64,000 bases of DNA from an uncultured Eubacteriales bacterium (GCA_949840345.1 CATKWX010000001.1:155538-219537), one strand, 5' to 3'. Positions 229 to 63,088 are shown, counted from the first letter of the stretch. The notes: generated by a model from the letters alone, not told the origin. Program-made: numbers and translations.

Positions 229-330
229 CAAAAATCTTTGATTTTTGTACTATTGGGCACAGTGGTGTAGCAAGATACGGGTATTCCCATAAACGGTGCC
301 CCTACACTATTCATTATTAATTTTTCACTT
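229..330. repeat. Family A mosaic repeat: SD-adjacent palindrome P (caaaaatctttgatttttg) plus 47-nt GC hairpin H3 (gggcacagtggtg...aaacggtgccc) plus CTACA plus heptamer fragment
   Basis: Modules recur at more than 25 loci in this window. Confidence 0.8.
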
Positions 331-442
331 TAATATAATATATCAATATAATAAATTTTTCAATATTTTTTAATTTAAATTGGAAATTTGTAGGCAGAAC
401 TGCCTTAAGAAATTTATTAGAAATTATTTATAAATTTGTCCT

Positions 443-781
443 CTATTGTTTGCCTACCTCATTAAATGTCAACCCCTCTCTTTTTAAAATTTCTTCAAGA
501 GAAATAGCTCCTTCATTTTCTTCTTTTTTTGTACTTTCATTTTCTTTAAGATAATCTAAATACATTACTTTTTCTGTAATATCCATATTCTCTAGAATTA
601 CTGTTGGCTCTAACTTTAGAAGTTCTGATTCAATTGCTTTTTCCATTAAAATTCTAATAGAGTTTAGGCATTCAATATTTAACCTTGGAGTCATTTTAAT
701 TACATCTTTAATTGCTTGTAATTGTGATTCACTCATATTTATATTCTCCTTTTCTTTTTGTATATTATATCTTTTTGTCAA
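443..781 (-). CDS. hypothetical protein (112 aa; possible start at internal Met16)
   Basis: Six-frame ORF with no recognisable motif. Confidence 0.35.
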   Translation of the reverse strand: MTKRYNIQKEKENINMSESQLQAIKDVIKMTPRLNIECLNSIRILMEKAIESELLKLEPTVILENMDITEKVMYLDYLKENESTKKEENEGAISLEEILKREGLTFNEVGKQ

Positions 782-820
782 ACAAATTGCAATAAAAATT
801 CTAAAAAAAATAGTGTAAGC

Positions 821-863
821 GGAACGGCGAGGGCGCCGTTCCCTACAATGTTTGCAATATGTT
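821..863. repeat. Family A: hairpin H1 (ggaacggcgagggcgccgttcc) plus CTACA plus Q box (atgtttgcaatatgtt)
   Basis: Exact copy of modules seen at 4616, 11424 and 22159. Confidence 0.85.
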
Positions 864-893
864 TTGTGTTAGTCATTATATCTATCAATAATT

Positions 894-60488: not shown

Positions 60489-60536
60489 ACATATTTCTCC
60501 TTTTTATATTAAAGGACGAGTTTTTGCTCGTCCATA

Positions 60537-62736
60537 TTATTTTCTTAACCTCAAAGCATTTAATATTACAGTTATACTACTTAACACCATTGCTAAACTT
60601 GCAATCATTGGGTTTATTGAAATTCCAATAGGCTTTAATATTCCAATTGCAACTGGTATCATTAAACAGTTATAAAAAAATGCCCAAAATAGGTTTTGCT
60701 TAATATTTCTTACTGTTTTTTTACTAATATTAATTAAATTCACAATACTTCTTAAGTCATTTTTAGTTAATATTACATCTGATGAATCCATTGCTATATC
60801 TGTTCCACTATTTACGCTAACCCCAATATCAGCACTTGCAAGTGCTGGGCTATCATTTATTCCATCTCCACACATCATTACAAATTTATTTTCACTCTTT
60901 AAGTTTTTAATTGTATCTGCTTTTCCAGAAGGTAACACATTTGAAATTACTTTTGTAATTCCAACTTCCTTTGCGATTTTTTCTGCAGTTTCAGTATTAT
61001 CTCCAGTTAGCATAATCGTATCTACTTTAGCTTTAGTAAATTCTCCTATTACCTCTTTTGCTTCTTCTCTTACAATATCATTTACACCAATTATTGCAAT
61101 TATCTGTTTATTTTTTACTACATACACAATACTGTTTTTCTTCTCTGCTAATACTTTTTCATCCTCTAAATGATTATTTTGAATTTCATATTTAGAAAGC
61201 ATTTTTGAATTTCCAAGTAATATTTCTTCACCTTCTATTACCCCTACAATACCTAAACCTGCTATATTTTCAAAATTTTGCACATCCAAATTTTTAAGTT
61301 TTCTTTCTTCTAAATAATCTGTAAATGCTTTTCCTATTGGGTGTGTCGATTTGCTCTCTAAGCTTCCAACTAATTGCATTAATTTATCATCTTCAAGCGA
61401 GCTATAATTTATTATCTCTGAAATTTTTAATTTTCCATAAGTTAAAGTTCCTGTTTTATCAAACACTATTGTATCTATTTTCCTAGCATTTTCTAAAATC
61501 TCACTTTTCTTTATCAGTATCCCATTTGTTGCACATACACCTTCACTTATGATTATTGCAAGAGGTGTCGCTAACCCTAAACTACAAGGACACGCTACAA
61601 CCAATATTGTAACAAATGTTGTTATGGCTAGGCTTAAACCTTGACCCAAACTTAAGTATATAATAAATGTAATTATTGCTATAATAATTACAGCTGGTAC
61701 AAATATTCCTGATACTTTATCTGCAATTTTTGCAATTGGTGCTTTTGTATTACTTGCTTCAACCACAAGTCTTACAATTTCAGATACAGTTGATTCTTTT
61801 CCTATTTTTTCTGCCTTATATTCTATGTAGCCATCATAATTCATACTTCCCGCAATTACTTTGTTTCCAATTTCTTTTGATACTGGCTTACTTTCTCCTG
61901 TAATAAATGATTCATCTAAATGTGCATTACCACTAACAACTTCTCCATCTACTGCAATTTTCTCTCCTGGTTTTGCAACTACAATATCTCCCTTTCGAAT
62001 CTCATCTAATGTAACTCTTTTTTCTACACCATCTACTTTTATAACTGCAGTATTTGGCGTAATACTTACTAACTTTTGTATTGCTTCTTTAGTTTTATTT
62101 TTGCTTACCCCATCAATGTATCTTCCGAAGTTTTATAAAATAAATTACTATTGAAGCGGATTCAAAATATAAATCCATTACTAAATGACGATTTCCCATA
62201 AATACTAAATACATATTGTATAAACTGTATATTACACTTGCAACTACACCAATTCCTACTAATGTATCCATATTAGGTGTTTTATGAATTAAATTCTTGT
62301 AACCATTTTTTAAAATATCAAAACCATAAACAATAAAGCATATTGTTAATAAAAATAAAGAAATTGTATAATTAGCACTATTTAAATGCGGGTCAAGGAA
62401 AGGAACTGTAGGTAAGTTTATCATATCCCCCATTGAAATATACATTAGTACTACTGCTAAAACAGAAAAAATTATAAATTTAATTTTTTCTGTTTTGCTT
62501 TTTTCTTCAAATTTTATCTCTTTAAACTCTCCTAAACTTTTAAAACCAGCTTGCTTTACAAATTCCTCTATTTTTTCTTGATTCAGAATTTTTTCATCAT
62601 ATTCAACAGTAGCATTTGCCATAACTAAATTAACTGTTGCATTATTAATCCCACTTTGTTTATTTAAGTATTTTTCTAAACCATTAGAGCAAGCACTACA
62701 AGTCATTCCATCAATGGATAAAATTATTTTTTTCAT
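60537..62736 (-). CDS. copA: heavy-metal (copper) translocating P-type ATPase; frameshifted
   Basis: N-terminal HMA GMTCSACS (ORF 62113-62736) and a CPC, DKTGT, GDGINDSPAL core (ORF 60537-61844). The sequence aaacttCggaagatac replaces IKLGRYIDG at about 62126. Confidence 0.85.
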
Positions 62737-62745
62737 AAATTAATC

Positions 62746-62955
62746 CTATTCCTCTCTGATATCAAAACCTATATCTTCAATTCTTTCCTTTATAACGTTT
62801 TCTACTACTTCATCACTTGATGTTACTACTACCATTCCTGTAGTATGGTCTGCTGTTACGTTTGTTACTCCTTCAATAGCTCCTACAGCATTTTTAACTC
62901 TGTTTTCACAACCTCCACATACCATACCTTCTACTTTTATTTTAAATTCCTTCAT
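62746..62955 (-). CDS. copZ: copper chaperone CopZ (HMA domain)
   Basis: MKEFKIKVEGMVCGGCENRV MxCxxC motif. The start follows an SD AGAGGAG. The ORF-track extension lies upstream. Confidence 0.75.
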   Translation of the reverse strand: MKEFKIKVEGMVCGGCENRVKNAVGAIEGVTNVTADHTTGMVVVTSSDEVVENVIKERIEDIGFDIREE

Positions 62956-62984
62956 AATTTTTTCTCCTCTAAAATTTTTATACC

Positions 62985-63088
62985 CTTCACTAGGGCATTT
63001 CTTCGAAGCACGGACGAGCAATGCTCGCCCCTACATCAAAATTTGCCTTTGGCAAATTTTGTATTATTCACTATTCATTATATCTTTT
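62985..63088. repeat. Family A with shuffled module order: W plus H4 plus CTACA plus P (caaaatttgcctttggcaaattttg) plus heptamers
   Basis: Lies between the copZ start and the tcdA stop. Confidence 0.75.

Follow-up and report, generated by a model that had tools for sequence, protein, structure and literature searches.

Dense, gene-co-oriented arrays of GTAG-tagged REP elements in a Clostridial genome, a cassette mosaic probably driven by RAYT enzymes

The intergenic regions of a 64-kb chromosome segment from an uncultured Eubacteriales bacterium (here, the window; coordinates are counted from its first letter) carry a modular repeat system, family A, in which short GC-rich hairpins are combined with four accessory motifs (Q, W, T, and P). 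We consider it probable that the hairpins are repetitive extragenic palindromic (REP) elements of the GTAG-tagged superfamily and that the system as a whole is a cassette mosaic driven by a REP-associated tyrosine transposase (RAYT). It is a known class, that of REPs and bacterial interspersed mosaic elements (BIMEs), and not a new kind; what is new is a dense, gene-co-oriented, direct-array family in Clostridia. An earlier note, made from the sequence alone, had not recognized the repeats as a named family. The repeats do belong to the known GTAG-tagged superfamily, and in the REP and RAYT papers that we searched, no Clostridial REP family is described. The 2013 survey of GTAG/CGTC repeats reported families in Proteobacteria, Cyanobacteria, Chloroflexi, and the Planctomycetes-Verrucomicrobia-Chlamydiae (PVC) group, with no mention of Firmicutes or Clostridia (PMC3733652), and the 2010 RAYT paper likewise does not mention Firmicutes. 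Group 1 RAYTs do occur in Clostridia (Bertels et al. 2017), but that group was tied only to low-abundance repeats.

The assignment starts from the strand on which the hairpins are read. On the minus (coding) strand, the hairpin plus CTACA becomes 5'-T-GTAG-GG…hairpin…CC-G, with GTAG at its 5' foot, which is the defining feature of REPs and the guide for RAYT enzymes (PMC3733652, PMC8266576). The suggestion of REP/BIME-like elements served by a structure-specific enzyme was therefore well founded, given that CTACA is the reverse complement of the REP head and that one hairpin class, H1, is tied to RAYT genes elsewhere (see below). As expected of a GT[AG]G head, nearly all copies have GTAG, with GTAA and GTAT as rare variants; among 81 REPs from the window and two related metagenome-assembled genomes (MAGs), 66 have T at position -1 and 60 have G directly after the stem. 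The rule that every hairpin is followed by CTAC applies to nearly all copies, the exceptions being CTTAC at 21148-21173, ATAC at 47421-47445, and none at 60514-60533. Stems of 6 to 10 bp with a GC content of 55 to 83% stand out, as the short GC-rich stem-loops of REPs do, in a window of about 29% GC (25 to 37% along its length, not the roughly 25% given before for the genome). In H3 and H4 (6 copies), the two classes with a wobble-compatible non-Watson-Crick pair, the GTAG strand has G.T and its complement A.C, a modest indication that folding takes place on the GTAG strand.

Like other REPs, these are extragenic, dispersed, and present in high copy number. All intergenic regions were printed and annotated automatically for modules, and the modular system described in the earlier note proved real, its modules lying far above chance expectation at about 30 intergenic loci with at least one of them. 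Nor are the copies confined to the window: 11 further heads lie in 18.7 kb of flanking DNA (8 in 9.1 kb on the left and 3 in 9.6 kb on the right) on contig CAPTNI010000003.1 (MAG GCA_948707265.1), where the window corresponds to about 70.9-134.9 kb, and REP density is high also in independent assemblies. In the window, about 45 GC-rich hairpins fall into at least 12 stem classes, as had been proposed, at a density of about 0.7 per kb, compared with roughly 0.1 REP per kb in Escherichia coli. The motif CCCTACR occurs at 48 sites versus 3.7 expected (45 on the plus strand and 3 on the minus strand), Q at 13 versus 1.9 expected, and P, with up to 2 mismatches, at 6 versus 0 expected. There are also nine perfect P-type palindromes in intergenic DNA, nine T arrays of at least three heptamers, all in a single orientation, and about 11 copies of W. 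Six modules had been announced before; the five actually described are real, but only five were listed.

Read along the coding strand, a gene junction runs from the stop codon through Q (AACATATTGCAAAC), N2, T-GTAG-GG..hairpin..CC-G, W, T, and (G/A)TAC-P to the ribosome-binding site and ATG. W reads G-Y-N-C-Y-N-C-G-A-A-G-G-N-A-T-A-C-C, and the T heptamers are of the type AGTGAAT/AATGAAT. Stem sequences vary while pairing is kept, as previously claimed, in both the GC hairpins and P. Most hairpins are perfect, but others have a bulge, a single mismatch, or G.T pairs. We found again the inverted arrangements at 16013, 24257, and 52676 and also the nested one at 51711-51784, where an H1 unit lies inside a long hairpin; the shuffled case near 62985 corresponds to 62993..63079, with P lying 5' of a REP. 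The loci are as follows.

229..322, minus strand: P (229-249, CAAAAATC-aaa-GATTTTTG), which ends 3 nt short of the ribosome-binding site of radA, a GTAG-headed long REP H6 (255-305), and two T heptamers (309-322).
821..863, minus strand: REP H1 (GTAG, then GGAACGGCG-CCCT-CGCCGTTCC, 821-846) with Q 5' of it on the coding strand (850-863), downstream of the stop codon of a GH15 gene, the product of which is identical to protein P0001.
2789..2892, minus strand: P (2789-2813), four T heptamers (2816-2843), REP H2 with duplicated head GTAGGGGC then GTAGGGGCGCA.. (2844-2873), and a Q-like motif.
4552..4658, minus strand: complete mosaic of P (4552-4572; it overlaps the ribosome-binding site), T (4575-4588), W (4597-4615), REP H1 (4616-4641), and Q (4645-4658).
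6200..6324, minus strand: P (CAAAACTC variant), five T heptamers, W, REP H1 (6284-6309), and two T heptamers, at the junction of ftsK and the next gene; the sister-species spacer is 24-30 nt.
8803..9045, minus strand: P, four T heptamers, W, REP H1 (8874-8899), three T heptamers, REP H2 with duplicated head (8929-8958), W, bulged REP H1c (9004-9028), and a Q-like motif; in strain L097, one different REP replaces two.
11423..11465, minus strand: REP H1 and Q, downstream of the ileS terminator.
14275..14338, minus strand: P (CAAAATTTGC variant) and five T heptamers, without a GC hairpin.
15942..16036, both strands: head-to-head pair of long REP H6 (15942-15993, minus) and an inverted REP (16013-16036, plus) around a Q spacer (15997-16010).
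17179..17192, minus strand: Q motif alone.
18320..18346, minus strand: bulged REP H1c (GGAACAGACCAATGTCGTTCC) with GTAG head.
21087..21190, minus strand: P, T, REP with variant head GTAA (21148-21173), and Q.
22089..22183, minus strand: REP H3 (G.T wobble on the GTAG strand), Q, and REP H1 (22157-22183).
23250..23335, minus strand: REP H4 (GGGCGAGCATTGCTCGTCC), a Q-like motif, and a degenerate H1-like REP (23309-23335).
24162..24281, both strands: REP H1, T, short REP (24218-24235), Q, and an inverted plus-strand REP (24257-24281).
25307..25332, minus strand: REP H1 with loop variant CCCC.
26422..26479, minus strand: REP H8 (GGGCGATT-TT-AATCGCCC) and bulged REP H1c.
27396..27622, minus strand: direct array of P and three T heptamers, followed by four to five hairpins with GTAG heads and a single W.
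28120..28171, minus strand: long REP H6.
36079..36245, minus strand: P, three T heptamers, REP H8 (36147-36168), four T heptamers, a REP (36205-36232), and a Q-like motif.
39032..39054, minus strand: REP H4 directly 5' of a ribosome-binding site.
46807..46973, minus strand: W, REP H4, REP H5 (one G.A mismatch), four T heptamers, and a long REP variant.
47421..47514, minus strand: hairpin GGGTCGGTC-TTG-ACCGACCC with head GTAT (47421-47445), and bulged REP H1c (47489-47514) joined to the 3' arm of H6.
48868..48910, minus strand: REP H7 (GGGTCGATG-CCCA-CATCGACCC) and Q.
51711..51784, minus strand: nested element, a long H6 REP in which an H1 unit (51729-51754) has taken the place of 11 loop nucleotides.
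52607..52698, both strands: REP H3 with heads on both sides, a partial head, Q, and an inverted plus-strand REP H4 (52676-52698).
53274..53299, minus strand: REP H10 (GGGTCACGCC-AAT-GGCGTGACC).
56571..56711, minus strand: two direct units, W, REP H5, and T followed by W, REP H1, and T.
60514..60533, minus strand: headless hairpin GGACGAGCAAAAACTCGTCC, of uncertain family membership, within the 48 nt (60489-60536) where strain L108 (13171-13711) has an extra gene for a 172-aa P-loop protein between ATPase and methyltransferase genes.
62993..63079, minus strand: W, REP H4 (63012-63034), P (CAAAATTTGCC variant, 63037-63063), and T, with P 5' of the REP.

Each module keeps one fixed orientation relative to the genes, a point absent from the earlier note. 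In the window and the related MAGs CANRED and CAOKHH, the GTAG strand was the coding strand of both neighbors for 59 of the 75 intergenic REPs with both neighbors called, and most of the exceptions were the second member of an inverted pair. Such pairs are few, only three in the window (15942-16036, 24218-24281, and 52615-52698) against about 40 direct REPs. Nearly all window genes lie on the minus strand, and since GC skew is negative on the plus strand along the entire window, they would be placed on the leading strand, the usual pattern in Firmicutes. For leading-strand genes, the coding strand is the lagging-strand template, which is also the template used by Y1 transposases of the IS608 type.

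Despite their hairpins, the elements do not behave as transcription terminators or attenuators, nor as miniature inverted-repeat transposable elements (MITEs) that depend on a DDE transposase. Either idea would fit small, intergenic, repeated units with a stable hairpin each, but we hold both to be highly improbable. No T-run follows the GTAG hairpins on either strand, and a terminator scan of positions 1-20000 called none of them while calling genuine terminators nearby. Their tails are instead G-T/C-N.. or heptamers, and many lie within apparent operons just before a ribosome-binding site. The comparisons of filled with empty sites and between strains revealed neither terminal inverted repeats nor target-site duplications. 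No Rfam family overlapped the family A modules of the window even at E ≤ 0.5; the only family reaching its gathering score in the window was a T-box leader.

The two modules nearest the start codon have features of their own. P is preceded by ..GTGAAKARTA in every case, followed by a ribosome-binding site or ATGTAGGG, and always lies 0 to 6 nt before a ribosome-binding site or before another REP. Its stems come in eight variants (CAAAAATC, CAAAACTC, CAAATCTC, CAAAATTC, CAAAATTG, CAAAATTTG, CAAAATTTGC, and CAAAATTTGCC), and as all are perfectly paired, pairing has been maintained through changes on both arms. The head of P is GTAC or ATAC, similar to GTAG, and a GTAC head redirected cleavage for one RAYT (PMC8266576); P may itself be a REP variant, judging from these sequences. 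The T arrays have a period of 7, so that stop codons fall in all three coding-strand frames in eight of nine arrays, and no array of the T pattern was found in the opposite orientation in the window. When the RNA of one complete mosaic was folded and compared with shuffles, the sense strand gave a z of -2.65 and the antisense strand one of -1.39. The features of P and T may allow a role at the RNA level, without showing one. Two further readings were considered and rejected. Q contains a TTGCAA hexamer resembling a -35 box, but a consistent -10 is missing and the promoter scan was at background (126 versus 120 expected), and long-range pairing of W, whether to the GTAG head or to the last heptamer, fails across loci.

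Taken further, these features could mean that the mosaics are host-selected RNA parts of polycistronic mRNAs, spread by recombination and with their parts kept by selection. The GC hairpin after the stop codon would keep 3' exonucleases away from the cistron before it, the AU-rich heptamers would provide three-frame stops and an endonuclease entry site, and the P hairpin would protect or present the downstream cistron. REPs of E. coli are indeed known to stabilize upstream mRNA, and the single module orientation, the location almost only between codirectional genes, the placement and perfect variants of P, the stops in T, the G.T pairs on the sense strand, and the sense-antisense difference in folding all speak in favor. 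However, several of the same junctions in sister species have no element, and co-specific strains have different hairpins, or P for a REP, at one junction, which argues against a site-specific function, while the GTAG head and the link to RAYTs are left unexplained. We think this explanation rather unlikely as the primary one, but it is compatible with the RAYT-driven mosaic as a secondary effect.

Comparison with relatives, which are labeled as Clostridiaceae or Clostridia MAGs from gut samples, revealed presence/absence and cassette polymorphism between both strains and species, as had been predicted. At five gene junctions, the spacers of sister species (L100 and L102/L103; about 89 to 90% protein identity) measure 9 to 50 nt, versus mosaics of 105 to 181 nt in the window species that have left the ribosome-binding site and the start codon intact. 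Over the orthologous 22 kb, GTAGGG occurs 20 times in the window species versus twice in L100 and twice, counting genuine cases, in L102. The co-specific strain L097, whose genes are 97 to 99% identical to those of the window, has a 51-nt unit (GTAG, hairpin H4, W, and linker) inserted exactly 5' of a resident GTAG. It also has one REP of another class in place of two, a REP in place of P directly before a ribosome-binding site, different numbers of heptamers, and one different P stem. Tandem GTAG-to-GTAG units were found after eno in CANRED (3 × 90 nt; L074) and, with H1, in Ruminococcus flavefaciens FD-1 (3 × 116 nt; L012 3560-3900), and in the window the "H1 + GCAGRCACCACTGTGCC" junction of the nested element (51711-51784) recurs at 47470-47514 without the 5' half. 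The tandem, nested, and strain patterns all fit a cassette bounded by heads.

Two side observations concern arrangement. In Geosporobacter ferrireducens (L040 5570-5660), H1 forms an inverted doublet, GTAG-hairpin..hairpin-CTAC, of the type known as REPINs (REP doublets forming hairpins), so that the arrangement of the same hairpin differs by lineage, being tandem in R. flavefaciens. Within the window, two tandem paralogous gene blocks (21228-22095 and 23337-24163; 81 to 93% identical) have their own family A elements, and their REP content differs.

The link to RAYTs comes from H1. The 26-mer of H1 plus CTAC was scanned letter for letter against one genome per species, which gives lower bounds, and was present at at least 95 loci in 40 other genomes among the matches listed; these include cultured R. 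flavefaciens and Geosporobacter, several Clostridial families, and a MAG of Bellilinea (Chloroflexi). Q, W, T, and P, on the other hand, were seen only in the window species and the 29%-GC MAGs CANRED and CAOKHH and were absent from the other 38 H1-sharing genomes among those matches. Therefore, the hairpin is the widespread, enzyme-linked part, and the rest is a local mosaic. Together with the hairpins, these motifs form a BIME-like, lineage-specific mosaic, conceptually comparable to E. coli BIMEs with their accessory motifs.

At four loci (L020, L025, L114, and L115), H1 flanks a RAYT gene or sits in frame within it. The L020 and L025 genes encode the motifs RL.NYDYSQ.G.YFVTICT and MPNHIHGII, and each has the hairpin both next to it and within it. 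The L020 gene scores above the Pfam Y1_Tnp cut-off, and for both its product and a second, non-H1 RAYT (L091), the best NCBIfam match was REP_Tyr_transpos (E values of 2e-17 and 3e-18; 63 to 66 bits, under the 80-bit equivalog cut-off). The sole match in the PDB, a weak one, was E. coli TnpA-REP (4ER8), and relatives are named "REP element-mobilizing transposase RayT" by JGI and NCBI. Peptides encoded by in-frame H1 occur at two loop positions among homologues (ERR[GW]RRSL in 85 of 239 and VGN[DG]A[LP][AV]V in 36 of 239). Geosporobacter subterraneus has H1 REPs (L032 and L063) together with an annotated RayT (P0252). L114 (28% GC) has neighboring genes with about 80% DNA identity to sister species L100 and to CANRED and encodes an intact H1-type RAYT (P0287) with one H1 REP 55 nt upstream and two in frame, although it is a relative and not the window species. 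Other RAYTs of the family carry hairpins resembling further window classes, e.g., GGGGCGATTC..GAATCGCCC in L093, which is similar to H8.

As a separate observation, several RAYT genes contain their own REP hairpin in frame: L020 394-909(-), L025 7191-7834(-), L091 5773-6294, L093 5947-6468(-), L105 6001-6519, and L114 2736-3290. There are two such sites, GTAG plus hairpin after the first strands and hairpin plus CTAC, in the opposite orientation, after the HUH strand. In the L020 gene, the stem is compensated (GGAACGGTG..CACCGTTCC) and the peptide thereby becomes ERWGHRSL, so that the DNA hairpin, and not only the peptide, seems to be conserved; the proteins are about 46 to 55% identical. We found no mention of in-frame REPs inside RAYT genes in the REP/RAYT papers that we read.

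A tblastn search with 120 homologues against the window and all fetched loci (966 kb in total) detected no RAYT in the 84 kb covered of this genome (the window plus 10-kb flanks) or in 186 kb of CANRED and CAOKHH; the search for an IS200-like or RAYT enzyme advised earlier thus succeeded in other genomes, including the 28%-GC relative, but not in this one. Three candidates were discarded. P0150 (L104-106) and P0238 (L110-113), both AT-rich RAYT homologues, belong to classical REPtrons of other organisms, with other hairpins and without Q, W, T, or P, and the 172-aa gene of strain L108 encodes a P-loop protein instead. Plasmids and phages, considered as possible carriers of the H1-type RAYT, gave nothing closer than 35% identity.

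The negative search would suit elements that are relics of a past RAYT expansion, the enzyme having been lost and diversity arising by slippage, gene conversion, and homologous recombination among copies. Many of the strain differences are replacements, heptamer copy number varies as slippage would give, and there are degenerate copies such as 23309-23335 and the H6 copy in L097. On the other hand, the load is about tenfold that of each sister species over the same 22 kb, and the 51-nt insertion between strains with nearly identical genes is clean, both of which indicate recent activity. Besides, most stems are perfect, the RAYT search covered only a small part of the genome, and one relative (L114) has an intact H1-type RAYT. 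We regard the loss of the enzyme as unlikely, though deserving of attention.

Returning to the RAYT-driven cassette mosaic, the process could run as follows. A RAYT, a Y1/HUH enzyme, would bind the folded single strand with GTAG as guide, nick nearby, and rejoin the ends, so that a GTAG-to-GTAG segment would be excised, presumably through a circle intermediate, and reinserted at another GTAG. In published biochemistry, RAYTs cut REP single strands at CT or CA on the 5' or the 3' side of the hairpin, and GTAG serves as their guide (PMC8266576). Repeated rounds would have filled the short spacers between stop codon and ribosome-binding site in the window species, the product being direct arrays of cassettes, each consisting of a head and a hairpin, followed on the 3' side by W, T heptamers, and P. 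The active strand would be the coding strand, that is, for leading-strand genes, the lagging-strand template, the strand used by IS608-type Y1 transposases (PMC6006769); this would explain the near-uniform orientation. The enzyme would be active in this genome now or have been so recently, and the transcribed hairpins might affect the mRNA.

Several points weigh against this account. No CT dinucleotide at a fixed distance from the hairpin was conserved among the 81 REPs of the three genomes. At least 12 stem classes share one head, versus one REP family per RAYT in classical systems, and P, T, W, and Q have no counterpart in known RAYT biochemistry. Most of the REPs are direct, unlike the inverted doublets (REPINs) regarded as the unit of replication in E. 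coli and Pseudomonas. Orientation to transcription is inseparable from orientation to replication because the window has only four +/+ gene pairs, none with an element. Several strain differences are replacements and not clean insertions, for which gene conversion or recombination between copies could suffice without a transposase. To these must be added the failure to find a RAYT in the DNA covered.

A broader and more speculative proposal, which we find improbable, is that the RAYT-driven system assembles standardized intercistronic modules, namely, a GC hairpin after the stop, three-frame-stop heptamers, and an AT-rich GTAC-headed hairpin at the ribosome-binding site, that would set the processing, stability, and translation of operon cistrons, with the RAYT keeping in-frame master REP copies in its own gene. 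If true, such master copies would explain how a 26-nt REP is identical across phyla versus proteins that are only about 50% identical.

How REPs spread and what RAYTs do for their hosts have been studied almost entirely in Proteobacteria. The present lineage is a natural experiment in a Gram-positive gut bacterium, with a very high REP load, empty sister sites, and cassette differences at the strain level. It suggests that the moving unit is a head-bounded cassette rather than an inverted doublet, and the differences hint at where cleavage sites are located. REP invasion has lengthened operon spacers about tenfold while leaving the operons unbroken, so that in Firmicutes the influence of REPs on polycistronic mRNA can be tested directly. 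In practice, the repeats will break up short-read assemblies of these MAGs, and they are also sensitive strain markers.

The window has other features outside family A. A second repeat family of about 110 to 120 nt (aaaagaattagtatat..aacgacgcaagatgctgat) with a long internal hairpin occurs at 30086-30206, 39077-39195, 57617-57727, and about 48950-49066; its copies are 82 to 86% identical, and the family, which has no Rfam match, is shared with MAG loci L084 and L001/L006. A third family, of about 170 nt with a potential hairpin of about 110 nt (gaaattcttatgc..ccataaaat..gaatttct), occurs at 14347-14550 (inverted), 17176-17374, 22209-22385, and 34023-34103, with copies 81 to 88% identical, one of them abutting the T-box leader; L018 has this family too. 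Between an upstream plus-strand gene and a downstream minus-strand gene, about 90 nt (34708-34797) form a near-perfect palindrome, probably a bidirectional terminator; it gave spurious sub-threshold matches to microRNA precursors on both strands. The window contains no tRNA genes.

Some window genes are split. The metallo-beta-lactamase/beta-CASP gene at 2893-4537 (minus strand) consists of a 37-aa open reading frame (ORF) and an overlapping 517-aa ORF, with a one-base shift near 4446, and because the same split recurs in independent assemblies of the species and in sister species L102/L103 (about 89% protein identity), a conserved frameshift rather than an assembly error is suggested. At 59582-63800 (minus strand), genes were called in overlapping or separate pieces, also in strains L107 and L108: ThiF (53 + 182 aa), an RsmB/F-like methyltransferase (140 + 175 aa), and a copper-type P-type ATPase (a 69-aa HMA, a 207-aa HMA, and a 435-aa hydrolase, with an uncalled stretch at 61845-62112).

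Among known systems, integron attC arrays are a functional analogy only. They share direct cassettes in one orientation, folded single-strand sites, and a conserved structure with variable sequence, but integrons use the tyrosine recombinase IntI and collect gene-carrying cassettes in a single array at attI, whereas no integrase or attI is present here. The IS200/IS605 elements (IS608 and ISDra2) are closer in the mechanism that we propose, in which a Y1/HUH enzyme would act on folded single-stranded DNA of the lagging-strand template, with a guide tetranucleotide at the hairpin foot, a single-stranded circle, and no target duplication. Unlike them, the units described here, of 25 to 90 nt, have no transposase gene and no distinct left and right ends.

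The REPIN-RAYT systems of Pseudomonas (Bertels and Rainey 2011; PMC5581495) resemble family A in their high-copy GTAG hairpins and in having several REP classes per genome, the transposase there being single copy and domesticated. REPINs, however, are inverted doublets that are mostly inherited vertically with Group 2/3 RAYTs, whereas here only three to four doublets were found among about 45 REPs, and the same 26-nt REP spans Clostridial families and a Chloroflexi MAG. The REP/BIME elements of E. coli with TnpA-REP (the REPtron; Ton-Hoang 2012, Messing 2012, PMC8266576) also have a GC-rich extragenic hairpin with GTAG at its 5' foot, form mosaics with other short conserved motifs, vary between strains, and are served by a Y1/HUH protein of the same family as the H1-associated genes, to judge from the best NCBIfam match (REP_Tyr_transpos). 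They differ in their required bulge and in their alternating orientation within BIMEs, in contrast to the mostly perfect stems and direct units colinear with genes found here; their accessory motifs are unrelated to Q, W, T, and P, and in the window genome, no RAYT was located in the 84 kb covered. Finally, the stem-loop families GTAG-1 to GTAG-24 (Di Nocera 2013, PMC3733652) were reported from taxa among which Firmicutes and Clostridia are not mentioned. By definition they are the same kind of element as family A, a stem-loop with an unpaired GTAG tag at one end that lies mostly 3' of coding regions, where neighboring ORFs point the same way, and that is plausibly transcribed.

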